DNA from: Patescibacteria group bacterium
GTDB taxonomy: Bacteria > Patescibacteriota > UBA1384 > XYA2-FULL-43-10
Reading direction: 5' to 3'
Assembly (NCBI GenBank): GCA_041674405.1
Contig: JBAYVT010000001.1
Location: forward strand, 1,012 to 65,011
Length of the DNA stretch: 64,000 nucleotides
The notes under the pieces are model-generated. The model saw only the letters and a program-made list of their open reading frames with translations. It was not told where the DNA came from and ran no database searches. The translations under genes and the position numbers were made by a program. Shown here one piece after another: positions 12,067-57,204 of this stretch (positions within the stretch are counted from its first letter, which is position 1; every line of letters starts with the position of its first letter).

Positions 12067-14715
12067 CTATTTGGAAGTATAGCTGATTCCGGATTTCGCG
12101 GCGATTACGGCTTGTGCAGCGGCAAGTCTGGCGATTGGGACGCGATATGGTGAGCAGGAAACATAATTCATCTTTACTTTGTGGCAGAAGTGAATTGTGG
12201 TAGGATCTCCGCCGTGCTCTCCACAGATGCCGACTTTCAGATTCTTCTTTGATGATCGGCCTTTCTCGATCCCAATCTCAACCATTTTGCCGACACCGTC
12301 TTGGTCGAGAGTTTGGAATGGATCAGCGTCAAAGATGCCAATTTCCTTGTAAACTTTGATGAATTTGCCGGCGTCGTCGCGGGAGAAGCCCATTGTCATT
12401 TGGGTTAAGTCGTTGGTTCCGAAGGAGAAGAATTCAGCTTTCTCAGCGATCTCGTCTGCAGTTACAGCGGCTCGTGGAACTTCGATCATTGTGCCAACCT
12501 TATAGTCGATCTTGGTTTTGTATTCGGACATGACTCGGGTAGCAGTTTCATCAACAACTTTCTTCTGGTTCTCAAACTCCTTGACATTGCCTACAAGCGG
12601 GATCATGATTTCCGGAACGATCTTAAATCCATCTTTCGCAAGTTCGCAAGCGGCAGAGATGATAGCTTCAGCCTGCATCTCGGTGATTTCCGGATATGTA
12701 ATTCCGAGGCGGCAACCGCGGTGGCCAAGCATCGGATTGAATTCGTGCAAATCTTCAGAAACCTGTTTGATCTTGGATTCAGAAATACCGATTTTTTTCG
12801 AAAGAGCTTTGACATCCTCGTTTGTCTTTGGCAAAAACTCATGCAAAGGCGGGTCCAAAAGACGGATGGTTACCGGAAAACCCTTCATTTCGCGGAAGAG
12901 GCCAAGGAAATCTTCTTTCTGGAAAGGTAAGAGCTTTTTCAAGGCTTTTCTTCTTTCGTCTTCGGTATCGGCAAGAATCATCTGTTGCATGAATGGAAGG
13001 CGCTTCTCGTCGAAAAACATGTGTTCGGTGCGGCAGAGGCCGATGCCTTCGGCGCCAAATTCTCGAGCGGTCTTGGCATCAGTCGGCGTGTCTGCATTGG
13101 TGCGAACTCCGAGGACGCGGGTTTTGTCAGCCCAGCCCATGAGAGTCTTGAATTCGGCTTTGATCTCCGGCTCGATTGTTTTGACCTCGCCAAGGATGAC
13201 TTGGCCGGTAGAGCCGTTTAGGGCGATCCATTCCCCTGCTTTGACTGTATATGAACCAACAGTAAATTTCTTCGCTTTTTCATCAATCTTTATATCACCG
13301 CAGCCGGCAACGCATGTTTTGCCCATTCCGCGGGCAACAACTGCGGCGTGGCTGGTCATACCGCCGCGGCAGGTCAAGATTCCCTGTGCTGCGTACATGC
13401 CGTGGATATCATCCGGTGAGGTCTCAGCGCGGACCAGGACGACCTTTTCGTTGTCGCCAAGTTCGGCAGCGGTATCTGCGTCGAAAACGACCTTACCGAC
13501 AGCGGCACCGGGAGAGGCCGGAAGTCCCATTGCGATAACCTCAAGCGTAGCTTTCGGATCGATGACAGGGTGCAAAAGCTGGTCGATAGTTTCCGGTTCT
13601 AGCCGCATTACAGCTTCGTCTTCTCCGATCATTTTCTCTTTGACCAAATCAACAGCGATCTTGACAGCAGCTTGGGCAGTTCTTTTGCCGGTTCTGGTCT
13701 GTAACATGTAGAGCTTGTTTCTTTCGATGGTAAACTCAAAATCCTGAACATCTTTATAATGTTTTTCAAGTTTGTCTGTGATTGCCTTGAGCTCTGTAAA
13801 TGCTTTTGGCATCTCCTTCTTGAGATCGGCTATCGGGTGCGGCGTGCGTACGCCGGCTACAACATCTTCGCCCTGTGCATTGGTAAGGAATTCACCGTAG
13901 AACTCCTTATCACCAGTGGAAGGATTTCTAGTGAATCCGACGCCGGTGGCGCAGTCATCACCCATGTTGCCGAAGACCATTGCCTGGACATTTACGGCTG
14001 TTCCCAAATTGTGAGGAATGTTATTCAAGTTTCTGTAAGTATTGGCTCGGTCATTGCCCCAGCTCTCGAATACCGCTTTGTAGGCCATTTCAAGTTGTTT
14101 AGCCGGATCCTCTGGAAATTCTTTGCCGGTCTCTTTCTTGACCAATTTTTTATATCCGTCGATCACATCTAGAAGATCGTCGGCGGTGAGGTCGGTATCA
14201 AGTTTAGCACCGGCTTTGTCTTTGACAAGATCTAGAACATGTTCAAATTTGTCTTTGTCGATAGCAAGTACGACATTTCCGAACATCTGGATAAATCTTC
14301 GGTAGGCGTCGTGAGCAAATCGGGAATTCCCGGTAAGCTCGGCCATGCCTTTGACAGTTTCATCGTTCAAGCCAAGGTTTAGGATCGTATCCATCATACC
14401 CGGCATCGAGAACTTGGCGCCGGAACGGACGGAGAGAAGGAGCGGATTTTTGGCGTCGCCGAATTTTTTTCCGGTTGACTTTTCAACTTTTGCAAGCATT
14501 GGTGCAAGCTCGGAGTCAAAGTCCTTCGGCAGTTTCTTGCCGTTGTTGTAATAGTAATTGCACATTTCGGTCGTGATAGTAAAACCTGATGGGACCGGAA
14601 CGCCTAAATTCGACATTTCGGCAAGGTTTGCGCCTTTACCGCCCAAGAGAGCTTTCATTTCCGCTTTGCCTTCGGCTTTTCCGTCACCGAAATAATAGAT
14701 GTACTTCGTACTCAT
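12067..14715 (-). CDS. ppdK: Pyruvate, phosphate dikinase
   Basis: 882 aa. N-terminal ATP-grasp (GGKGANLAEM). Central phospho-His domain (GGMTSHAAVVARGMG). C-terminal PEP-utilising TIM barrel (CGEHGGDP). Confidence 0.9.
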   Translation of the reverse strand: MSTKYIYYFGDGKAEGKAEMKALLGGKGANLAEMSNLGVPVPSGFTITTEMCNYYYNNGKKLPKDFDSELAPMLAKVEKSTGKKFGDAKNPLLLSVRSGAKFSMPGMMDTILNLGLNDETVKGMAELTGNSRFAHDAYRRFIQMFGNVVLAIDKDKFEHVLDLVKDKAGAKLDTDLTADDLLDVIDGYKKLVKKETGKEFPEDPAKQLEMAYKAVFESWGNDRANTYRNLNNIPHNLGTAVNVQAMVFGNMGDDCATGVGFTRNPSTGDKEFYGEFLTNAQGEDVVAGVRTPHPIADLKKEMPKAFTELKAITDKLEKHYKDVQDFEFTIERNKLYMLQTRTGKRTAQAAVKIAVDLVKEKMIGEDEAVMRLEPETIDQLLHPVIDPKATLEVIAMGLPASPGAAVGKVVFDADTAAELGDNEKVVLVRAETSPDDIHGMYAAQGILTCRGGMTSHAAVVARGMGKTCVAGCGDIKIDEKAKKFTVGSYTVKAGEWIALNGSTGQVILGEVKTIEPEIKAEFKTLMGWADKTRVLGVRTNADTPTDAKTAREFGAEGIGLCRTEHMFFDEKRLPFMQQMILADTEDERRKALKKLLPFQKEDFLGLFREMKGFPVTIRLLDPPLHEFLPKTNEDVKALSKKIGISESKIKQVSEDLHEFNPMLGHRGCRLGITYPEITEMQAEAIISAACELAKDGFKIVPEIMIPLVGNVKEFENQKKVVDETATRVMSEYKTKIDYKVGTMIEVPRAAVTADEIAEKAEFFSFGTNDLTQMTMGFSRDDAGKFIKVYKEIGIFDADPFQTLDQDGVGKMVEIGIEKGRSSKKNLKVGICGEHGGDPTTIHFCHKVKMNYVSCSPYRVPIARLAAAQAVIAAKSGISYTSK

Positions 14716-27238: not shown

Positions 27239-27323
27239 TGGTGCCGCAGCCCGGACTCGAACCGGGATGGATTTCTCCACACGATTTTGAGTCGTGCGTG
27301 TCTACCAATTCCACCACAGCGGC
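27239..27323 (-). tRNA. tRNA-Leu (anticodon CAA), CCA encoded
   Basis: Hand-folded cloverleaf: long variable arm (type II), anticodon loop cuCAAaa, T-loop ggttcgagtcc. One acceptor-stem mismatch. 3' CCA present in the DNA. Confidence 0.7.
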
Positions 27324-27412
27324 GCAGTTAATTATCACTCGTTAATTCTAGCAAAAAATCGGTTTAAACTCAATTGTAAATTATTGTATAATGGTTCGGG
27401 AGGGATTTTTTA

Positions 27413-29014
27413 ATGTTTGAAAATAATCTATTTAAACGTTCCAAAAACAACGGCTTTAAAAAGTCTCCGCTTGTGTTGATTGTTTTAGATGGTTGGGGAA
27501 TCGCCCCGTCTTGGGGAGGAAATGCAATAACATTATCATCTACTCCGGTGTTTGATGGTCTCTTGCGTGAATATCCATCCACCGCCCTACAAGCTTCTGG
27601 CCTAGCTGTTGGCCTTCCGGACGGCGCGCCTGGCAACTCTGAAGCTGGACATTTAAATATCGGGGCTGGAAGAATTGTACACCAAGATATCTCACTTATC
27701 GATTCAGCGATAGAAAACGGAGATTTTTTTAAAAACGATATTCTCCGTGAAACATATGAACATGCAGAAAAAAACGAGAGCAACATTCACATTATGGGGC
27801 TCTTGTCTGATGTTGGCACGCATAGCCACATACGGCATCTGGATGCATTGCTTAAGTATTTTAAAGATAAAAATTTTAATCGGATATACATTCATCTTTT
27901 TTCTGATGGCAGAGATTCTGATCCGATGTATGGAATTGAGCTAATTGGCAAGGTTAACAAAATAATTGAAGGCGCTGGTATTGGCAGGATCGAATCTATC
28001 ATGGGCCGTTTTTATGCAATGGACCGCGATAACCGCTGGGGGCGCACAGCCCGTGCTTATAATTGTTTTGTCCGATCTGAGGCAGAATCGGTAGAAAACG
28101 CTAACGAAGTTTTTTCCAGATCATATGCTGCTGGCACAACCGATGAATTTATTGAGCCAAGAATAATTAATAATAAAAATTTTCATTTCGTTCCCATCCG
28201 GGATAATGATTCAATAATAATTTTTAATTTTAGATATGACAGGGTCAACCAACTAATTGATTGTTTCGTTAAAGATTCGATTGATCGCTTTCCCGACCAT
28301 AGAAAGCTCCAAAACCTTTTTGTTTCTTCCTTTGCGAACAGCTCTGATATGACAAAATTTAAAACGATTATACAAGCTCCTAAAATAGAAAATCCGATTG
28401 CCAAAGTTTTATCAGAAAACGGCTTGAAGCAATTACATATTGCTGAAACAGAGAAATTTCCTCATGTAACCTATTTTTTTAATGGTGGCATTGATGAGGC
28501 AAACAAGAATGAAGACCGGTTAAGAATTCCCTCGCCCAAGGTTCGAACATACGACCTTAAGCCTGAAATGAGTGCCGATAAGGTTTTAAAGTCTGTACTC
28601 TCTGCGCTGAATAAAAATATTTATGATTTTTATGTTGTAAATTTTGCCAATCCTGACATGGTGGGCCATACCGGAAATTTAAAGGCTACCATGCACGCTG
28701 TTTCGTTCGTCGACCAGTGCCTTGGACAGATAATACTTAGTATCCAGAGTAAAAACGGAACCGCGGTAATATGCGCTGACCATGGTAACGCCGAACAAAT
28801 GGTTAATCCGCAAACCGGTGATCCGGATACGGAACACACGACCAATCCTGTTCCGTTTATTGTGGTAAGTGATAATTTGAAAGATAAAATTTCACTCAAC
28901 TCAAACGGCTCGTTATCAAATATTGCCCCGAGTATTTTGGATCTTTTGAATATAGATGTTCCAAATGAAATGAAAACCAAAGAAAGTTTAATCATAAAAC
29001 GGGAGATGATTTAG
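27413..29014 (+). CDS. gpmI: 2,3-bisphosphoglycerate-independent phosphoglycerate mutase
   Basis: LIVLDGWG, catalytic Ser in GNSEAGHLNIGAGR, metal ligands NPDMVGHTGN and CADHGNAE. Confidence 0.9.
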   Translation: MFENNLFKRSKNNGFKKSPLVLIVLDGWGIAPSWGGNAITLSSTPVFDGLLREYPSTALQASGLAVGLPDGAPGNSEAGHLNIGAGRIVHQDISLIDSAIENGDFFKNDILRETYEHAEKNESNIHIMGLLSDVGTHSHIRHLDALLKYFKDKNFNRIYIHLFSDGRDSDPMYGIELIGKVNKIIEGAGIGRIESIMGRFYAMDRDNRWGRTARAYNCFVRSEAESVENANEVFSRSYAAGTTDEFIEPRIINNKNFHFVPIRDNDSIIIFNFRYDRVNQLIDCFVKDSIDRFPDHRKLQNLFVSSFANSSDMTKFKTIIQAPKIENPIAKVLSENGLKQLHIAETEKFPHVTYFFNGGIDEANKNEDRLRIPSPKVRTYDLKPEMSADKVLKSVLSALNKNIYDFYVVNFANPDMVGHTGNLKATMHAVSFVDQCLGQIILSIQSKNGTAVICADHGNAEQMVNPQTGDPDTEHTTNPVPFIVVSDNLKDKISLNSNGSLSNIAPSILDLLNIDVPNEMKTKESLIIKREMI

Positions 29015-30580
29015 TTGGAAAAGATTACTTCGAAAAAAGTTTGTTTGATAATACTGGACGGCTGGGGTTTCTCGCTAAATCGCGCTGGAAATGCAATTTT
29101 TTTAGCTGGCCCAAGGAACTTCGATAATTTATGGCAATCATATGGCCATGCAGTTCTATCGACTCATAGCAATTTACAGAAAAATAACGATGATAGTATT
29201 AATTCTCAAATTTGTTATACACAAATCTCGGCTGGTCGATTTGTTAAAAGCGAATCTCAAATCATTGCTGATGAATTTACGAGCGGAAATTTTTTAGAAA
29301 ATGAGGTTTTAAACAACACATTTTTAAATGCAATTTCCCATGACTCAAACGTTCATTTTGTTTGTCCAATAGATGAAAGTGAATATTCCCTGGAATATAT
29401 ATATGGCCTTCTAAAAATGGCATCATCGTATCAGGAGGTTTCTGTATATATCCACTTGGTAATTTCAAAGGATAACTCATACCAGGAACTTTACCAAGTC
29501 CTGGACAAGATAAAAGATTCTACCTCAAAGACCAGTAATTGCATCATTGCATCAATATTCGGAAGTGATTATTCAGCGTATGACATAACGGAATATTCAA
29601 AAATTCTTTCGGCCTACAATGCAATCATTTGGGGCGAAGGAAAACAATATTTTGAGATATCGCAAGTCCTAAAGTCCAACGAGGAAAAAAATGTCAGACC
29701 CCACCAAATTGAGCCATCCATTATCGTAAACGATGGTAAAGCCGTAGGAATTTCATCAGATTTCGATAACTTTATATTTAGTTCAGTAACAGGTGAACCA
29801 GTCAAAATGCTTTTTATATCTCTGGCTAATGGTATAAAAAGCGTAAAATCACGCCGAAAATTTAATCTTAAGCTTATTCCGTTTGCTGATTATTTACACA
29901 CTAAAAGTGTAAGTTGTGATCATGTATTCAAAAGTGTGGCAATATCGCCAAACTTATCGGAGATTATTAGTAAGTCTGGGATTGGTCAATTTCACGTTGG
30001 GGAAAGCATAAATGAAGATGAAGTAAGTTTTTATTTTAATGGCAGGATATCAAATAATTTTCCTGAAGAAAAAATTATGATTGTCACGTCTTCTGAAAAC
30101 TCTGCAAAGAACCATGGTTTGTCTTCGTCTTATATTGCCAAAGTAACGATTGACCAAATGATGAAGAACAAAGAGTGTTTTATTGTCGCCGGCTTTGCAA
30201 ATGTTGATTATTTTGCTCATACTAAAGATGTGAGATCTACCGCCTTGGCAGTAGCCGCGCTTGATGATTGTTTAAAATTAATTTATGACGCATCGATAAG
30301 AACAAACACAACTCTGGTGATTACGGGAAGTCACGGAAACGCGGAAAATATGGCAAGAAGTGCCAATTTAGATACGTTCTCGAAAAGTCCTGTTCCTTTC
30401 ATTGTCGTTTCACCGGAAACGAGAAAAAACACAACCTCTCAATTCAGACAGGTAAATTTTTCAAGCATGATTTCTTTGAAACATTCAATTTGTGATATTG
30501 CCCCAACAATTTTAAACATCATGGATATTAAAATTCCATCAGAGTTTTCCGGGAGAAGTCTTATAAATTATTTAGAATAG
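29015..30580 (+). CDS. Divergent iPGM paralog (possible pseudoenzyme or altered specificity)
   Basis: TTG start 0 nt after the gpmI stop. Same domain order (IILDGWGF ... NVDYFAHTKD ... GSHGNAENM). The GH of the SEAGH motif is replaced (NSQICYTQISAGR) and ADHGN is replaced by GSHGN. Confidence 0.65.
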   Translation: MEKITSKKVCLIILDGWGFSLNRAGNAIFLAGPRNFDNLWQSYGHAVLSTHSNLQKNNDDSINSQICYTQISAGRFVKSESQIIADEFTSGNFLENEVLNNTFLNAISHDSNVHFVCPIDESEYSLEYIYGLLKMASSYQEVSVYIHLVISKDNSYQELYQVLDKIKDSTSKTSNCIIASIFGSDYSAYDITEYSKILSAYNAIIWGEGKQYFEISQVLKSNEEKNVRPHQIEPSIIVNDGKAVGISSDFDNFIFSSVTGEPVKMLFISLANGIKSVKSRRKFNLKLIPFADYLHTKSVSCDHVFKSVAISPNLSEIISKSGIGQFHVGESINEDEVSFYFNGRISNNFPEEKIMIVTSSENSAKNHGLSSSYIAKVTIDQMMKNKECFIVAGFANVDYFAHTKDVRSTALAVAALDDCLKLIYDASIRTNTTLVITGSHGNAENMARSANLDTFSKSPVPFIVVSPETRKNTTSQFRQVNFSSMISLKHSICDIAPTILNIMDIKIPSEFSGRSLINYLE

Positions 30581-32258: not shown

Positions 32259-33299
32259 ATGTCGGAAACAAACAAAAAATTAGTAACAGGCAATGAAGCA
32301 GCTGTTCTCGGGGCAATCGCGGGAGGTGCTGAAATAATGTTTGGCTACCCAATAACGCCGGCAACGGAAATTTTACAAAACTGGGCAGCTAAATCTCTTG
32401 ATAATTCATCTTTATCATATTTGCAAACTGAGGATGAGACCGCGGCCGGATTTTGTGTCAATGGGGCACTTCTGGCTGGAGTAAAGGCTTTTACTGCATC
32501 TGCCGGGCCCGGGCATATTCTCTTACAGGATCCGATCTCAATGGCAGAAATGGAGCGATTGCCTTTTGTTGGGATTATGATGCAGCGCGGCGGCCCGTCG
32601 ACAGGGACTGTTAATTTTTCACAGCAGGAAGTAAATTTGGCTTCGTTTGGCGGAAACGGCGATGGCTTGCGTGTGGTTTATTCGGCTTCGAGCGTACATG
32701 AAATGTACACTTTGACAACAAAAGCATTTTCAACCGCATGGAAATTTCGCTTTCCAACTTTTGTGCTCGGTGATGGATATCTCGGCAAAACTGAAATGTT
32801 AATAGAGCTTCCCAAGCTTTTAAAGCCAGTGCCAGCTTATAAAATTTTAAAAGAAAATGCAGCTGCTCCCACTTATCTTCGAAACTGCTACTCCGATGAG
32901 GAATCCTTCGGTTCTGTCCTGGACGAAAACATTAAGGATTGGAAGAAATCAAAACATGCAATTGCTGAATCCGAATCTTATAAACTTTCCGGAATAAACG
33001 AATTAATCATTGCCCACGGAATTGTAGCCGAAGCTTGCAAAGATGCGATCGATAAAATGCTCACTCGTAACAAAAAAATCGGTTTGTGGAGGCCAATAAC
33101 GCTAAATCCGATCGATTCCGCCTCATTAATTGCAGCAGCTAAAAAAGTCAGAAAAATTCACATTTTTGAATCAGCACTTAATCAATTTGCCCGAATTATC
33201 AAATACGAATTGGCTGGCCTAAAATTGGATATTATTGAGCACGGCAAACCCGCACGTGGATTTACTCCTGAGGAAATTATCGAGGAGATTATGCAATGA
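32259..33299 (+). CDS. 2-oxoacid:ferredoxin oxidoreductase alpha subunit
   Basis: KorA/PorA-like N-terminus (LVTGNEAAVLGAIAGGAEIMFGYPITPATEI). Confidence 0.8.
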   Translation: MSETNKKLVTGNEAAVLGAIAGGAEIMFGYPITPATEILQNWAAKSLDNSSLSYLQTEDETAAGFCVNGALLAGVKAFTASAGPGHILLQDPISMAEMERLPFVGIMMQRGGPSTGTVNFSQQEVNLASFGGNGDGLRVVYSASSVHEMYTLTTKAFSTAWKFRFPTFVLGDGYLGKTEMLIELPKLLKPVPAYKILKENAAAPTYLRNCYSDEESFGSVLDENIKDWKKSKHAIAESESYKLSGINELIIAHGIVAEACKDAIDKMLTRNKKIGLWRPITLNPIDSASLIAAAKKVRKIHIFESALNQFARIIKYELAGLKLDIIEHGKPARGFTPEEIIEEIMQ

Positions 33300-34021
33300 A
33301 TGAAATTATGCCAAAATGCTGGAATTGCAATACTAAACCGCACTTATTTTGTCCTGGTTGTGGGCATGGCATTACGTTAAAACACCTCGGATACGCAATC
33401 GACGAGATGGAAATTGCCAATAATGTTACTTTGGGCATAGATATAGGATGCTCACTTCTCTCCTGGAATTTCTTCAATTTTGATACTATTCAGACTCATC
33501 ACGGCAGAACAAACCCGACAATGGTCGGATACAAAATGGCAAACCCAAAGCGAGTTGCCATTGCTTACATGGGTGATGGCGGTGGTTATGCGATAGGTTT
33601 ACAATCCTTACTGCATGCAGCTTTTCGAAACGATCCAATTACTGTTATTTTGGTTAATAACGAAAACTATGCTATGACCGGCGGCCAAGTTGCGCCAACT
33701 ACTGAAACTGGAATAGTAACAGCGACCACGCCAAAGGGTAAACCTGTATCATTTGGTCCCGGCTTTCATGGTCCCGAACTAGTCCGCTGTATCGCGAATG
33801 ATAAAGCATTTGTCGCCCGTGTTTCTGTTTCCCAGCCGGAAATTATTAAGTTGACACTTAAAAAAGCGATTGAAAATCAAATTAAAAACAAATTATTTTC
33901 TTTTGTTGAGGTTCTTTCCATCTGTCCGACAAACTGGAAAACCAATGCAAAGGAATCGTTTAATCGACTTTTGGATATGGAAAAATACTACCATGTCGAA
34001 GAAATCAAACCGAATGAATAA
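33296..34021 (+). CDS. 2-oxoacid:ferredoxin oxidoreductase beta subunit (TPP-binding)
   Basis: CPGCGHG, TPP-binding GDGG...NN motif. Start overlaps the alpha stop (ATGA). Confidence 0.8.
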   Translation: MNEIMPKCWNCNTKPHLFCPGCGHGITLKHLGYAIDEMEIANNVTLGIDIGCSLLSWNFFNFDTIQTHHGRTNPTMVGYKMANPKRVAIAYMGDGGGYAIGLQSLLHAAFRNDPITVILVNNENYAMTGGQVAPTTETGIVTATTPKGKPVSFGPGFHGPELVRCIANDKAFVARVSVSQPEIIKLTLKKAIENQIKNKLFSFVEVLSICPTNWKTNAKESFNRLLDMEKYYHVEEIKPNE

Positions 34022-34832
34022 TAATTCGATAAAAATTATCCTCGCAGGTGAAGGTGGCCAAGGGGTTCAAACAATTGCTAAGGCATTGTTTAATGCTGCA
34101 ATTTCTGCTAAATACAATGTTTCATACATTCCCTCTTTTGGTGTCGAACAGCGCGGTACGCCATCTGTGGCTTATATTACGCTGTCTCACGGCCAAATAC
34201 GTTATCCCCGTTTCGAATTTGCTGATGTGGCGCTTGTCATGGGAGAACGAGCAATGGATCGTGTAGCAGGGGTTATCAATCCGAATACGAAGCTGATTTT
34301 CGATACCTCAAACATGGACACAAAAAATTTAAAAAAGCCTTGGGTTAAACGGCTTGGCGTTCCGGCTACCAGATATGCTTTAGAAAAATTTTCACCGAAA
34401 TCATATAACGTATTAATGTATGGTGCTTTGTGCAAAGAGCTTGGTTTTGACCCAAAGATATCGTGGGATTCCATACATAGCATTTTGAAAGATAAATTTA
34501 AAACCAAGGAAATTGCAGAAATGAATCACGATGCGTTTTCTTTCGGTTATGAAATTGTCTTTGAACACAAGAATTTTTCCAAGCCAATCTATGAGACCAA
34601 AAAGACAGATAATATTTTTAGAAATGCCGAAAAGATCGCCACGATCTCGCCCGAAAGATGCAAGGGTTGTGGAATCTGCATAGAAAAATGTCCAGTTAAG
34701 GCATTATCTTTTGGTGAAGATTTGGGTGTGTTCTCCACTCCGGTTCCAGATATTAACCTTGAAAAATGTATCGCTTGTGGCAATTGTCGACGCTACTGTC
34801 CCGACGGGGCGATTAAAGTTGATAAAAAATAA
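34014..34832 (+). CDS. 2-oxoacid:ferredoxin oxidoreductase gamma subunit fused to 2x[4Fe-4S] ferredoxin (delta)
   Basis: Gamma-like ILAGEGGQGVQTIAKA N-terminus. C-terminal CKGCGICIEKCP and CIACGNCRRYCP clusters. Internal ATG chosen so the gene starts 8 nt before the beta stop. Confidence 0.7.
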   Translation: MNNNSIKIILAGEGGQGVQTIAKALFNAAISAKYNVSYIPSFGVEQRGTPSVAYITLSHGQIRYPRFEFADVALVMGERAMDRVAGVINPNTKLIFDTSNMDTKNLKKPWVKRLGVPATRYALEKFSPKSYNVLMYGALCKELGFDPKISWDSIHSILKDKFKTKEIAEMNHDAFSFGYEIVFEHKNFSKPIYETKKTDNIFRNAEKIATISPERCKGCGICIEKCPVKALSFGEDLGVFSTPVPDINLEKCIACGNCRRYCPDGAIKVDKK

Positions 34833-34839
34833 ATTTAAA

Positions 34840-34876
34840 ATAAAAAATCTGCCTGAATCAAGGGCGGTTTTTTATT
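34840..34876 (+). terminator. Weak rho-independent terminator after OFOR operon
   Basis: A-run, 5-bp stem cugcc/ggcgg (one G-U), then a T6 run. Confidence 0.35.
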
Positions 34877-35065
34877 TTGGTGGACCCGATCAGACATTAG
34901 AACCCGTTTCACTCTTTCGAAACCCTCGGTTCCGAATAACCTCCTATACGGGCAACTCTTGTTTCCCGACCCCTTCCGGAGCTCAAGCCTTCTCTTTGGG
35001 GAGAACAAATTAAAATAGAGTCGCAAGGACTCATTTTATTCTGGTGGACCCGATCAGGCTTGAAC
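34869..35065. repeat. 24-bp direct repeat (ttttatt[t/c]tggtggacccgatcag) duplicating the tRNA-Ala 3' end; att-like
   Basis: Copies at 34869-34892 and 35042-35065, 1 mismatch, bracketing about 150 bp. The second copy is the real tRNA-Ala 3' end plus 8 nt downstream. Confidence 0.5.
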
Positions 35066-52899: not shown

Positions 52900-55800
52900 C
52901 TAATATCTTGAAAATATCTTTATCCAAGAAAACGCCCGCTGAAAAGCTTCCAGTATGAGATTTAAGGCGGATTGCTGGGCTTTCTGGGTGATTACAGCAT
53001 TGTCTTCCGATGTGCCAGGATTGCCGGCTTTGTCTTTGGATACGGCTCTTAAATGGTAGGTCTTGGTCGGATCAAGATTGGAGATAATGACAACATGGGC
53101 ATTGGAATAGGATCCGTCTTCCTGGGTTTTGGAAGAATAATTGGAAGATGATACTCCTTCGCCGTATTCAACCTGAGAGGTAGAGGTTTCATCTGTGCGC
53201 CAGGAAACAACCACTTGGGCTTTACCACCATCGGATGATGTGCCGGTTTTGGATTCAATGGTAAGTTCTGTTACTTTTGGCGGACGGGAATCAAGAGCGG
53301 TTTTAAAAGTGTTGGTATCACTTGTGGCCTTGTTACCATATTGGTCTGTGCCTGAAGCAGTAAGAGTGTAGGAGGCGTTGTCAGAAAGATTTGCAATGCT
53401 GATTTCATGATCTTTCTTCATGTCGGAAGTAGCTACTTCTCTCTGTTCTCCACCAGATGGACCATAAAGGACAGATGAGGTGGTCTCGACATTGGTTGCC
53501 CAAGTTACCTTCATGCCAGCATAGGCCTGATCGTCAACGGGCTCAAAGCGAAGATTGGAGATGATGGGGATGGGGGGAGTGGAAAAATCCTTAAGGCCAT
53601 AAAATCTTGTTCCGTCTTGAGCTGTCGCATCAACTCTTAATTGATAGCTGGTACCACCAGAAAGACCAGCTAGTTCTTTAGAAAATTCAGTGCTATAGGT
53701 ATCACTGACAACAATTGATTGGCCAAGATCGCCAACACCAAATTCCAAATTAGTTTTTGCTGGATAAGTGGTAGTCCATGAAACGCTTGCAAGTGTTGGA
53801 GTCAAGACTTTGACTTCTAAATTTTTAATGCCTGGTGCCACCGCCGTGGTGGTCTCATGCCAGGCAGATTCTCCAGTGTTGGCAGAAGTATCCATCCATG
53901 TGACTTTGTAACGATAAGTGCGTTCCGGTTCGAGGCCAACCACCCTTACATTGTGGTTGATGTCAAAACCACCGAAGGCTTGTTCGGTGAGATATTCATT
54001 GCCCTCATAGACGATAACTGATCCTTTGGTGTTTTTGTTAGTCGTCCAGCTCACCGTGATCGATGACGGACCGGCAGTAACGTTCGGCCCATCGATGATG
54101 TTTACTACTCCAGTAGAGCAGTAAACTCCGGTCTGATAAGCAGAGACATTACCTGCATTGTCTTTCGATCTAATGTATATTACATTATCTCCTTCTTGAT
54201 AAGGATGAAGGGAAAGCGTGGTATCGGCAGTAGATTGGACTTGGCCTTGAGAACCATTTTTGTAGTCATAACCAGCAATACCGGCACCGCCGGAATCTCC
54301 GGGAGCATCCCAGGTGGCGGTGAAGTCTTGGGTGGTGGAACAGCCAACAGGAGATAGATTGATATACTCCGGAGCAGGTGGCGGACCGCCATCATAGGAA
54401 TACGTGAATAACTTGGTGGCGGGAGTTTGAATATTCAGGTCGTTATCTTCGGATTTAATAAGCAGATAATATGTGACTCCGGATGTCAAAGCGCCTGCTG
54501 GCACTTGGATATGTTGTTCTGTATCTGCTGCACCGGAATGGGCTTGATAGTGATATGCGCCACTTGATTCCAAAACACCAGATGTAGAGACGGGATCAGC
54601 TGAATCAGAGGTACCAAAGTAGATAAGGTAGCCGCGGATACCGGAACCCCCTTCTTCATCAGCCGCTCCGGCGAAGGTGATGTAGGGACTAGCACTATTT
54701 CCCCAGCCGGAGTCGGTAAACTCGGTGGTCTTTCCGGAGTCACTGTAGAAATGGGCAGAGGAGGGATTGGTGGGGGCAGTAGTATCTGATCCGGTATGAG
54801 TAATGGTGATATTATCCATCATCCCATCCCAGCGGTCGGTTATAGAGTTCACTCGGCTACCGATGTAAAAGTAATAACCACACGAAAGGTTCCCCCAAGG
54901 AGTATCATCAAGAAGAGACGCCACCTCTGTACTATTAACATTAAGTGATATTATTCCACTAGTCCCATCGTAAAGGACCTGAACATTATTCCAGCTCCCG
55001 TCCGCCAAACTAAGAGCTTGGGATTCCAAAACCAGCTTACGGCTTGCAGTTGTAAGATACATTCTAAGCCTGTAATCAAAGATGTCGTAGACCAATCGCA
55101 GTTCGTCTGTGCTCCCCTGGGCGTCAAAAAGTATCTTTTCTTTTGTAAAAGTCGACAAAAAGCCCGATCCGTCAATTTTTGTTTGGACAACTCGATTGTT
55201 TTGATAGTCAACAATATAGATATTTTCAGAAGTCACATCATAAGCAATTCCTCGGGGATAATTGAAATTACCGACTCCACTTCCGTTTGTACCGTAAGTT
55301 GTCCACCCGGTGCCATCCATCTTGGTTTTTACAATGCGATGATTGTTATAATCAGTCACAAAAATATTGCCACTTTCTGAATCGACCGTAATACCGCGAG
55401 GTCCATTGAAATTACCTGTCCCATTGCCAGCAGTACCGTAAGCTGTCCATCCTGTGCCGTCCATTTTAGTTTTGACAATGCGGTTGTTGCTATAGTCAGC
55501 GACATAAACATAATCATTGACTTGATCATAATCAATGTAGCAAGGATTGCTGAAGTTTCCTTCACCGCTGCCATTTGTGCCGTAAGCCGTCCACCCGGTG
55601 CCATCCATCTTGGTTTTTACAATACGGTTATTGCCATAATCAACGACGTAAACGTAATCACCAACTGAATCATAAGCAATACCATATGGATGATTAAAAT
55701 TGCCAATGCCACTGCCCACCGTTCCGTAAGCCGTCCACCCGGTGCCATCCATCTTGGTTTTCACGATACGGTTGTTGCTATAGTCAGCGACATAAACATA

Positions 55801-57204
55801 ATCACTTGCCGGATCATAGGCGATACCATATGGACCATTAAAATTACCTACTCCACTTCCAGTTGTGCCATATGCAGTCCACCCCGTACCATCCATTTTG
55901 GTTTTCACAATGCGGTTGTTGCTATAGTCAGTGACATAGATGTAACCACTGGATCGGTCATGAGCAATGCCTAGTGGTTGATTAAATCCAGCCGTACCCC
56001 TGCCATTTGTACCATATGCAGTCCACCCCGTACCATCCATTTTGGTTTTCACAATATTACGATTTCCAGAATCAACCACATAAATATTACCGCTCCCGGG
56101 GTCAAAAACAATACCAGCTGGTTCGGAAAATTTCCCTACTCCACTTCCGTTCGTGCCATATGCAGTCCATTCTGTTCCATCCATCTTGGTTTTGACAATA
56201 CGCTTATTGCCAGTATCAGCAACGTAGGCATAATCACCAGTGGCGTCATAAGAAATACCCGATGGGTTTGAGAAATTGCCTACTCCACTTCCAGTTGTGC
56301 CATATGCAGTCCATTCTGTTCCATCCATCTTGGTTTTGACAATACGCTTATTGCCATAATCAGCGACATAGGCGTAATCACCAACCGGATCATAGGTAAT
56401 ACCGTATGGGCTACTGAAATTTCCTACTCCACTTCCGTTCGTGCCATAAGTTGTCCATCCCGTACCATCCATCTTGGTTTTGACAATGCGGTGATTGCCA
56501 GTATCAGCAACATAGAGATAGCTATTTGTCGAATCATAAACAATGCTATATGAAAGTCCAAAATTTCCTACTCCACTTCCGTTCGTGCCGTAAGTTGTCC
56601 ACCCGGTGCCATCCATCTTGGTTTTGACGATGCGTTTATTGCTGGTATCCATCACATATATATACCCACTAGATGAGTCGTATGCAATTCCACGTGGATT
56701 ATTAAAATTTCCTATTCCACTTCCGTTCGTGCCATAAGTTGTCCATCCCGTACCATCCATCTTGGTTTTGACAATGCGGTTGTTACCATAGTCTGCAACA
56801 TAGACGTAACCATTGGCAGCATCATAGGCAATATTATATGGCAAATAAAGCTGTCCACTGGTGTCAATTGAATTTTTTCCATAATCATCTTTTTGAAAGT
56901 CCAAGGAAATAGAGCCTTTGGACGCAGATAGATTATCATTGGTAGCATATTTTAGAGTCTCGGCGCCATCGTAAGTATATTTAAGAGAACTTCCCGATCC
57001 ACCCTCAGCATTCGTAGTTGAGAGGGTGGGAAAGGTACTATCCGTAGAAGCAGTCCCTAACCCAACAGAGTAATCTGCATTATAGCTTCCATTATCATAT
57101 GAGGTTCTGAAAGAATCTCCTGCTTTGGTTCCTTTTGTAAATATTGGGAAAATATTGTAGGCTACCAAAAATATGATCGTGAGAGAAACGACCAAAATTC
57201 CCAA
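52900..57204 (-). CDS. Giant secreted/surface protein (1434 aa): N-terminal TM anchor, 12 tandem NHL repeats (two 6-bladed beta-propellers), LamG/concanavalin-like domain, several FN3/PAP-N-like domains
   Basis: 12 repeats of about 47 aa (consensus YVADYGNNRIVKTKMDGTGWTAYGTNGSGVGNFNxPxGIAYD). Jelly-roll segment (LRLVYDIFDYRLRMYLT...ISLNVNS). Repeated ...SWTT...YRYKV... beta-sandwich modules. TTG start (alternatively an upstream ATT). Inserted between rplO and secY. Confidence 0.8.
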   Translation of the reverse strand: MGILVVSLTIIFLVAYNIFPIFTKGTKAGDSFRTSYDNGSYNADYSVGLGTASTDSTFPTLSTTNAEGGSGSSLKYTYDGAETLKYATNDNLSASKGSISLDFQKDDYGKNSIDTSGQLYLPYNIAYDAANGYVYVADYGNNRIVKTKMDGTGWTTYGTNGSGIGNFNNPRGIAYDSSSGYIYVMDTSNKRIVKTKMDGTGWTTYGTNGSGVGNFGLSYSIVYDSTNSYLYVADTGNHRIVKTKMDGTGWTTYGTNGSGVGNFSSPYGITYDPVGDYAYVADYGNKRIVKTKMDGTEWTAYGTTGSGVGNFSNPSGISYDATGDYAYVADTGNKRIVKTKMDGTEWTAYGTNGSGVGKFSEPAGIVFDPGSGNIYVVDSGNRNIVKTKMDGTGWTAYGTNGRGTAGFNQPLGIAHDRSSGYIYVTDYSNNRIVKTKMDGTGWTAYGTTGSGVGNFNGPYGIAYDPASDYVYVADYSNNRIVKTKMDGTGWTAYGTVGSGIGNFNHPYGIAYDSVGDYVYVVDYGNNRIVKTKMDGTGWTAYGTNGSGEGNFSNPCYIDYDQVNDYVYVADYSNNRIVKTKMDGTGWTAYGTAGNGTGNFNGPRGITVDSESGNIFVTDYNNHRIVKTKMDGTGWTTYGTNGSGVGNFNYPRGIAYDVTSENIYIVDYQNNRVVQTKIDGSGFLSTFTKEKILFDAQGSTDELRLVYDIFDYRLRMYLTTASRKLVLESQALSLADGSWNNVQVLYDGTSGIISLNVNSTEVASLLDDTPWGNLSCGYYFYIGSRVNSITDRWDGMMDNITITHTGSDTTAPTNPSSAHFYSDSGKTTEFTDSGWGNSASPYITFAGAADEEGGSGIRGYLIYFGTSDSADPVSTSGVLESSGAYHYQAHSGAADTEQHIQVPAGALTSGVTYYLLIKSEDNDLNIQTPATKLFTYSYDGGPPPAPEYINLSPVGCSTTQDFTATWDAPGDSGGAGIAGYDYKNGSQGQVQSTADTTLSLHPYQEGDNVIYIRSKDNAGNVSAYQTGVYCSTGVVNIIDGPNVTAGPSSITVSWTTNKNTKGSVIVYEGNEYLTEQAFGGFDINHNVRVVGLEPERTYRYKVTWMDTSANTGESAWHETTTAVAPGIKNLEVKVLTPTLASVSWTTTYPAKTNLEFGVGDLGQSIVVSDTYSTEFSKELAGLSGGTSYQLRVDATAQDGTRFYGLKDFSTPPIPIISNLRFEPVDDQAYAGMKVTWATNVETTSSVLYGPSGGEQREVATSDMKKDHEISIANLSDNASYTLTASGTDQYGNKATSDTNTFKTALDSRPPKVTELTIESKTGTSSDGGKAQVVVSWRTDETSTSQVEYGEGVSSSNYSSKTQEDGSYSNAHVVIISNLDPTKTYHLRAVSKDKAGNPGTSEDNAVITQKAQQSALNLILEAFQRAFSWIKIFSRY
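55100..56820. repeat. About 12 tandem near-identical 141-bp coding repeats (NHL blades) inside the giant gene
   Basis: Long near-identical DNA stretches are visible (e.g. ccgtaagttgtccacccggtgccatccatcttggttttgacaatgcggt recurring). Confidence 0.7.

Follow-up and report, generated by a model that had tools for sequence, protein, structure and literature searches.

This study concerns two adjacent genes in a stretch of 64,000 nucleotides from a Patescibacteria group bacterium (positions 1,012 to 65,011 of contig JBAYVT010000001.1, GenBank assembly GCA_041674405.1), which we refer to as the window. The first gene, c1, is a canonical gpmI encoding a phosphoglycerate mutase (PGM) of the iPGM family, and the second, c2, encodes a paralog of the same predicted fold that, judged by its aligned residues, cannot be an iPGM and is predicted to be PGM-dead. 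The reading that we favor, with a probability of about 0.55, is that c2 is an iPGM-derived pseudoenzyme which is selected for a non-catalytic role, perhaps as a partner of c1 at the protein level. Pseudoenzymes as such are already known; what is undescribed is the family of dead paralogs, derived from a well-known enzyme, to which c2 belongs. A literature search for iPGM together with pseudoenzyme found no paper combining the two, a search pairing the alkaline-phosphatase superfamily with pseudoenzyme gave nothing of relevance, and with c2 a pseudoenzyme would be described in the iPGM family for the first time.

Loss of the active site in an iPGM-fold paralog

Both open reading frames (ORFs) were confirmed at the coordinates given in Table 1. 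The c1 gene starts with ATG and encodes 533 residues identical to NCBI MFA7243704.1, in which the canonical motifs LDGWG, NSEAGH, ADHGN and HTGN are all present, and the c2 gene starts with TTG, the start chosen by both the IMG and the NCBI gene callers, and encodes 521 residues (NCBI MFA7243705.1, annotated as 'hypothetical protein') with NSQICY at the nucleophile context and GSHGN further on. At the junction, ...GGGAGATGATT TAG TTG GAA..., the TTG abuts the TAG without a gap and keeps the frame of c1, and a Shine-Dalgarno-like GGGAG lies inside c1 near its 3' end, 9 nt ahead of the start of c2; the ATG of c1 is also preceded by GGGAG. An earlier note made from the sequence alone had described an intact gpmI followed at zero spacing by a TTG-initiated paralog of 521 residues, and the coordinates, the junction and the TIGR01307 score of c1 bear this out.

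The two proteins are 28% identical end to end (E 3e-46) and both match the Pfam families Metalloenzyme and iPGM_N, with c2 showing the two-domain architecture (PF01676, 1e-35; PF06415, 3.6e-12). The NCBIfam equivalog model TIGR01307 has a cutoff of 330.65 bits, which c1 exceeded, while c2 scored 220.5 bits and fell below it. The AlphaFold model of c2, calculated from an alignment of 115 sequences, reached a pLDDT of 90.2 and a pTM of 0.91 (the two closest sequences alone gave an unusable model with a pLDDT of 34, and the deep alignment was used instead), its best Foldseek matches were 1O98 and 1EJJ (TM 0.83, E about 1e-41), and it superposed on the substrate-bound Geobacillus iPGM with a TM of 0.83. 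As modeled, c2 is a genuine full-length paralog with the iPGM fold, and no simple duplicate, fragment or fusion.

The comparison with other branches of the alkaline-phosphatase superfamily was negative. Sulfatases carry the formylglycine motif C/S-x-P-x-R at the nucleophile. A search of c2 with the Pfam families Sulfatase and Phosphodiest gave no match, even though c1 has weak ones, and the nucleophile context of c2 reads N-S-Q-I-C-Y, so the sulfatase-like activity offered as one option in the earlier note finds no signature in this protein. For phosphopentomutase the score was 24.7 bits against an NCBIfam cutoff of 254, with a Foldseek TM of about 0.4. In general, c2 shares the core phosphatase-domain fold with DeoB, archaeal ApgM and sulfatases, giving weak NCBIfam and Foldseek matches (TM about 0.4), but it differs from them by the iPGM-specific inserted transferase domain, with all scores far under the cutoffs, and it matches no other branch of the superfamily. 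It is like the iPGM (GpmI) of Geobacillus stearothermophilus (1EJJ/1O98) in its two-domain architecture, predicted fold and position of the Ser nucleophile, and differs from it in the sub-cutoff TIGR01307 score, the replacement of 10 of 16 active-site residues and an evolution about twice as fast as that of c1.

The 16 sites, in 1EJJ numbering, were the metal ligands D12, S62 (the nucleophile), D403, H407, D444, H445 and H462, and the substrate-binding or catalytic residues H66, H123, R153, D154, R185, R191, R261, R264 and K336, which we take to be the list of Jedrzejas et al. 2000. They were mapped by HMMER alignment to the Geobacillus iPGM 1EJJ and by MAFFT alignments of more than 100 homologues, and most proved to be invariant or nearly so among 118 other iPGM homologues, the less constant ones being R153 (98/118) and R264 (105/118). 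H462 is also named in a preprint (bioRxiv 10.1101/2024.10.28.619893). In sequence order, the residues of c2 at these sites are D S Y E K D S D T P N D H S H F. The changed residues, with c2 numbering in parentheses, are H66Y (68), H123E (123), R153K (152), R185S (184), R191D (190), R261T (259), R264P (262), K336N (333), D444S (439) and H462F (455), and those kept are D12 (15), S62 (64), D154 (153), D403 (398), H407 (402) and H445 (440). The substrate binders of the transferase domain are thus replaced in six of seven cases, with D154 as the sole survivor, and D154 is also all that is kept of the substrate-binding set when K336 and H66 are included. The bimetal site is incomplete as well, since D444S and H462F each remove one ligand from a metal site, and the Ser nucleophile remains, S64 of c2 aligning with S62. 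The results also showed that 5 of the 9 phosphatase-domain sites are kept in c2 against 45% of the other columns invariant in c1, which is the background level, and per-domain conservation revealed no domain-specific retention.

The two motif changes reported in the earlier note, SEAGH to SQICY (H66Y) and ADHGN to GSHGN (D444S), are both correct, but they understate the damage, and the main lesion, that is the loss of all substrate-binding Arg residues and of His123 in the transferase domain, had been missed. The alignment and tabulation of Mn2+ ligands and Ser that the note proposed as a check found the Ser kept and D444 and H462 lost, which is not the pattern of a simple duplicate. It is very improbable that c2 is still an iPGM, as a duplicate or isozyme with tolerated motif changes: homology extends over the full length and the fold is that of an iPGM, but H123, R153, R185, R191, R261, R264, K336 and two metal ligands are all replaced at positions nearly invariant in the 118 homologues, and the TIGR01307 score lies under the cutoff.

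A separate observation from the alignments is that many otherwise canonical iPGMs of Patescibacteria (P0003, P0004, P0010, P0014, P0024, P0026 and others) carry T, V, I, K or E in place of R153, or S in place of R264, with the rest of the active site unchanged, which suggests that variation at these two substrate-binding positions is tolerated or compensated in iPGMs of the Candidate Phyla Radiation (CPR).

Syntenic loci and selection on c2

A word-indexed protein search found one relative of c2 with more than 30% identity (P0002, 44%), and when 1.84 billion representatives were searched exhaustively with a profile, P0121 and P0122 were found as well, together with several degenerate iPGM-like groups at a greater distance. 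A four-member alignment served for pattern scans of JGI metagenomes and of the genomes of GTDB species, which returned canonical iPGMs of at most 29% identity only and no new family members. From the contigs of c2 relatives and c1 homologues we assembled 12 syntenic Patescibacteria loci, namely the window, L001, L003, L004 and L165 to L172, in which the gene order is gpmI (c1), c2, pduL-ackA or an ADP-forming acetyl-CoA synthetase, and porA-porB-porG, with pduL directly after c2 in nine. On the opposite strand upstream, a sortase gene was present in the nine loci long enough to show it, and most of these loci also have a PEGA-like gene and MurA, with MreB and GT4 genes in several.

In all 12 loci c1 is canonical at the 16 sites, while c2 has lost 6, 6, 6, 7, 7, 10 (the window), 13, 14, 14, 15, 15 and 16 of them, L171 and L172 accounting for one 14 and one 15. 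The c1 proteins are 51% to 84% identical with 150 invariant columns, in comparison to 19% to 74% and 17 invariant columns for the c2 proteins, and all 17 are conserved fold residues of ordinary iPGMs. The nine phosphatase-domain residues are all kept in L001, L003 and L004 against a background of 40% to 48% (P about 1e-3 each), eight are kept in L165 and L168, and between zero and three in L166, L167, L169 and L170. By this comparison the c2 family is predicted to be uniformly PGM-dead, with the transferase-domain site gone everywhere, and the metal centre appears to be kept in some lineages and dispensable in others, the protein itself giving no sign of dispensability. Because between 6 and all 16 of the sites are gone from the c2 copies at this position, a function that they share cannot depend on that site.

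The syntenic loci also bear on whether c1 and c2 are truly two genes, as they share a frame in the window with TAG alone between them. In the first ten loci c1 and c2 were -14, -8, -8, 0, 1, 2, 5, 16, 17 and 58 nt apart, and the coordinates gave a spacing of 26 nt for L171 and 1 nt for L172, so that the two are tightly spaced or overlapping in most loci. Since spacing, stops and frames vary among these loci, the in-frame TAG of the window is incidental and c1 and c2 are separate genes. A read-through product of 1054 residues, a mis-assembly or a frameshifted fragment is almost certainly not the explanation (the earlier note had named a fusion or a frameshifted fragment as a possible refutation): relatives have c1 and c2 in different frames and use other stops (TAA, TGA) and ATG starts, c2 has a Shine-Dalgarno site of its own and an N-terminus that aligns with those of its orthologues, and the identical sequence occurs in a JGI contig (250,826 bp) and in an NCBI/ENA/Logan contig (395,669 bp), possibly from one sample. 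Read-through fusion and sequencing error were both ruled out on the frames and stops in relatives and the sequence common to the two assemblies, and c2 is full-length and a separate gene in relatives. A Rosetta-stone search among longer iPGM-containing proteins yielded no c1-c2 fusion; the partners of iPGM in those proteins were HAD or signal peptidase domains, or else extra regions without further Pfam match.

Selection was estimated from the ratio of nonsynonymous to synonymous substitutions (dN/dS). For the closest pair, L165 and L168, dN/dS was 0.12 to 0.24 for c2 in comparison to 0.08 to 0.13 for c1, and for L167 and L171, which have both lost 14 of 16 sites, it was about 0.2 to 0.3 for c2, a rough estimate as dS is near saturation. 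Within the subclade of the window dS was saturated, and dN was 0.51 to 0.61 for c2 against 0.23 to 0.25 for c1, about twofold, with identities of 36% to 44% and 60% to 70%, respectively. In Tajima's relative-rate test the window c2 and its sister from L001, whose metal site is intact, had 62 versus 62 unique changes (p=1.0), so that the window copy shows no acceleration. These estimates indicate that c2 is under purifying selection in the two testable pairs, irrespective of the state of the active site.

It is improbable in this light that c2 is a functionless relic, that is, a redundant second iPGM which is decaying and awaits deletion. The faster change of c2 in both dN and identity would fit such a relic, as would the lineage-specific and apparently stochastic loss of active-site residues, and redundancy did once exist, given that related Patescibacteria carry two or three fully canonical copies. 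Against decay, however, all 12 c2 ORFs, of about 485 to 530 codons, are intact in lineages whose c1 proteins have diverged as described, and 521 codons of the same composition as the window c2 gene would lack a stop by chance with a probability of about 4e-18 per ORF; dN/dS is 0.12 to 0.29 where measurable, the fold is confidently predicted and the tight spacing to c1 is maintained. Genomes of Patescibacteria are moreover small and streamlined, which also argues against the keeping of a relic.

Candidate roles of c2

As a clear homologue of an active enzyme in which essential catalytic and substrate residues are lost, c2 answers to the description of a pseudoenzyme, and this reading is ranked first for the window gene because the metal centre is dispensable in some lineages and the protein gives no sign of being so. 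The residues and the selection estimates suggest that c2 probably has an undescribed, non-enzymatic role. Of the two options raised in the earlier note, the pseudoenzyme thus stands, with up to 16 of 16 sites lost and selection kept, its 'regulatory' qualifier finds no support in the present evidence, and a new phosphomutase, phosphatase or sulfatase activity is disfavored.

In the mechanism that we propose, c2 would keep the complete two-domain fold and would no longer bind or isomerise phosphoglycerate, and selection would retain it for a role independent of the iPGM active site. It would be transcribed and translated together with c1, as the first two genes of an operon (gpmI, c2, pduL, ackA, porABGD) whose predicted enzymes cover the isomerisation of 3-phosphoglycerate and the ATP-yielding, pyruvate-to-acetate end of fermentation. 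The promoter-like and terminator-like sites of the window bracket the whole operon, c2 included, and c2 is very probably co-expressed with the active c1; the tight or overlapping junctions suggest a stoichiometric co-production of the two. As a stoichiometric non-catalytic partner, c2 may stabilise c1, tune its domain closure or metal loading, or serve as a scaffold, and since iPGM catalysis requires both a large domain closure and Mn loading, a partner could modulate both. That the window c2 lacks any catalysis, and above all that it is a physical partner of c1, we infer from the genes.

Several points weigh against this reading. Purifying selection is measurable in other sublineages only, the nearest relative of the window c2 being 44% identical with dS saturated, so that for the window copy the signs of selection are the indirect ones of an intact ORF and an unaccelerated rate, and the orthology of the very divergent c2 groups (19% to 31% identity) rests on synteny and the shared long loop described below. 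The iPGMs are described as monomers (PMC5382265). The window c2 still has the Ser, D12, D403, H407 and H445, with which one metal ion and some phosphoryl chemistry would be possible, and the conservation in L001, L003 and L004 argues that their metal centre may still be selected, possibly for catalysis on another substrate.

The last two points lead to the main rival, in which c2 is a phosphatase or phosphotransferase that acts on a new, non-glycerate substrate through the Ser and the remaining bimetal centre, the glycerate-binding Arg cluster having been discarded. Some members of the alkaline-phosphatase superfamily work with one metal. Besides the five residues kept in the window protein, this rival could account for the phosphatase-domain residues of L001, L003 and L004, conserved far over background, and of L165 and L168, and for the invariant residues that are specific to the subclade, such as Arg344 in FxGR, C67/T69 and P118-D120-E121. 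On the other hand, the window c2 has lost one ligand per metal site together with H66 and K336, the metal site is partly or wholly lost in 7 of the 12 syntenic c2 proteins, the window included, and at least 14 of the 16 sites are gone in five of them, one pair of which still shows the purifying dN/dS given above. There is also no residue invariant in all c2 proteins beyond the fold residues of canonical iPGMs, and the rate of the window branch is unchanged after the loss of the site. We therefore regard a new catalytic activity as unlikely for the window protein, although it carries real weight in our assessment and would be more plausible for proteins of the L001 type.

A further-reaching version of the partner role is that iPGM in a large group of Patescibacteria is a c1-c2 hetero-complex, whose second subunit, active at first, repeatedly became an obligatory dead controller of the activity, metal loading or stability of c1. 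We consider this doubtful and put it forward tentatively. If it were true, the textbook monomer iPGM would work as a two-subunit enzyme in Patescibacteria, and entry into the ATP-yielding branch of a minimal fermentative metabolism would be controlled by the complex in a prozyme-like manner.

Dead paralogs that partner active enzymes are known, as with the prozyme of AdoMetDC in trypanosomatids and HisZ with HisG. The c2 family resembles these as paralogs that have lost catalytic residues and are under purifying selection in the two testable pairs, here with the gene right next to that of the active sibling, and it differs in that a complex or an activation would be a prediction and in that the sibling belongs to a family described as monomeric (PMC5382265). 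A precedent for iPGM as a protein-regulated control point is found in cyanobacteria, where PirC is reported to control iPGM as a protein ligand at the interdomain cleft, at a key point of carbon flux (bioRxiv 10.1101/2024.10.28.619893). PirC is small, unrelated to iPGM and governed by PII, and differs in this from c2, a full-size iPGM homologue in Patescibacteria.

Lower glycolysis and acetate fermentation are the main predicted ATP source of the metabolically minimal, small-genome Patescibacteria, and a gene of 1.5 kb that opens a core energy operon, has lost its family chemistry and is yet retained very probably has an important role. Annotation at present takes c2 wrongly for a second gpmI or names it a hypothetical protein, and metabolic reconstructions of CPR bacteria that rely on Pfam-level iPGM calls will credit them with too many functional PGMs. 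With losses that range from 6 sites to all 16, the c2 copies also form a natural series in which the retention of dead paralogs may be studied.

Origin of the pair, operon and neighbourhood

In a test of type by hidden Markov models, c2 did not resemble its neighbour c1 more closely than it did other iPGM types, which shows only that it is not of the c1 type, since outgroups behaved alike; the length of a C-terminal loop was the better marker of type. The segment from PVPF to xIAPT is short in the c1 type (18 to 21 residues) and long in the c2 type of tandem loci (32 to 33), and among the copies measured all degenerate c2 proteins had the long form (28 to 34 residues) and all c1 proteins the short one. 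Since c2 has the long C-terminal loop of another, typical CPR iPGM type, the pair appears to be old, and the local duplication implied by 'tandem paralogs' in the earlier note did not hold up. The two genes probably descend from active iPGMs that stood in an old tandem pair, the second of which lost its PGM site in the lineage with the sortase/gpmI/acetate/por arrangement. In the neighbour-joining tree all degenerate copies sit on long basal branches, the length of which leaves a single origin and parallel decay undistinguished.

Tandem iPGM genes, two or three in number, were found in 30 of the 167 loci fetched in the scans (L019, L031, L059, L070, L071, L085, L090, L093, L101-L105, L110-L116, L128-L137, L144 and L162), mostly with all copies canonical at 16 of 16 sites; their sources are metagenome contigs of the CPR and metagenome-assembled genomes of Actinomycetota, with short-loop and long-loop types visible. 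According to Foster et al. 2010, just 4 of 702 genomes have iPGM paralogs, and PGM paralogy is linked to large genome size (PMC2964296). The frequent tandem canonical iPGMs contradict this view of iPGM paralogs as rare, and, unlike the published link to large genomes, the paralogs here are conserved in very small ones. Three iPGM genes in a row were present at L071:3260-8147 (Candidatus Berkelbacteria PFTZ01000003.1), L085:4814-9584 and L104:6402-10920. The third copy of L071 is degenerate with 7 of 16 sites changed, and that of L085 and L104, both with a sortase upstream and L085 also with por downstream, has R153Q only, apart from the last three positions in L104, which also differ, maybe as an artefact of an ORF cut by the contig end. 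By these residues the triples may possibly show an early stage of the same decay.

Another degenerate iPGM-like protein, P0080 (L002:352-1923), has 10 of 16 sites changed and the nucleophile Ser replaced by Pro, as has P0151. An AMP-binding enzyme lies downstream of the gene in L002, where no gpmI is visible downstream and the upstream gene, of 117 residues, is cut by the contig end. From these features P0080 and P0151 may form an independent dead-iPGM family.

The features of the operon are listed in Table 1. The gene for the fused gamma and delta parts of the oxidoreductase probably starts, judged by the translated ORF, with the ATG at 33993 or 34014, within the ORF 33870..34832. The acetate kinase is short, its Pfam match stopping at model position 352 of 392, and the enzymes of syntenic loci have 355 to 361 residues too, so that the C-terminal truncation is conserved.

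Table 1. Features of the gpmI-c2 operon, in window coordinates.
Feature	Coordinates	Strand	Basis
Promoter-like site TTTAAA-18-TATAAT, 10/12	27363..27392	+	Consensus match; best of operon, about 20 nt 5' of c1 start
c1, canonical gpmI/iPGM	27413..29014	+	TIGR01307 590.9 bits; 16/16 active-site positions canonical
Shine-Dalgarno-like GGGAG of c2	29001..29005	+	Read from sequence
c2, iPGM-fold paralog, predicted PGM-dead	29015..30580	+	10/16 active-site positions replaced; Ser and 5/7 metal ligands kept
pduL-type phosphate acyltransferase (PTAC), 185 aa	30588..31145	+	PF06130, 2.3e-60
Acetate kinase, 359 aa	31160..32239	+	PF00871, 1.5e-76
2-oxoacid:ferredoxin oxidoreductase, alpha subunit	32259..33299	+	POR_N/PFOR_II
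2-oxoacid:ferredoxin oxidoreductase, beta subunit	33296..34021	+	TPP_enzyme_C
Oxidoreductase gamma subunit fused to 2x[4Fe-4S] delta domain	34014..34832	+	POR and Fer4 domains
Terminator-like hairpin (34849-34867) and T-run	34849..34877	+	Consensus match; closes operon

Directly 5' of the promoter-like site, between the sortase gene and gpmI, lies a gene for tRNA-Leu(CAA) on the minus strand (27239-27323). A pyruvate phosphate dikinase of 882 residues is encoded at 12067-14715 on the minus strand and bears on the conversion of phosphoenolpyruvate to pyruvate upstream of the por/acetate operon. It lies in a stretch from 10 to 16 kb with a GC content of 0.48 to 0.50, in comparison to about 0.39 for most of the window, which could be a horizontally acquired segment. 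At 52900-57204 on the minus strand the window encodes a protein of 1434 residues with many NHL repeats, fn3 and the N-terminal domain of purple acid phosphatases, from its domains probably a large surface protein, and in L166 a protein of 736 residues with the same Pur_ac_phosph_N domain is encoded near the operon.

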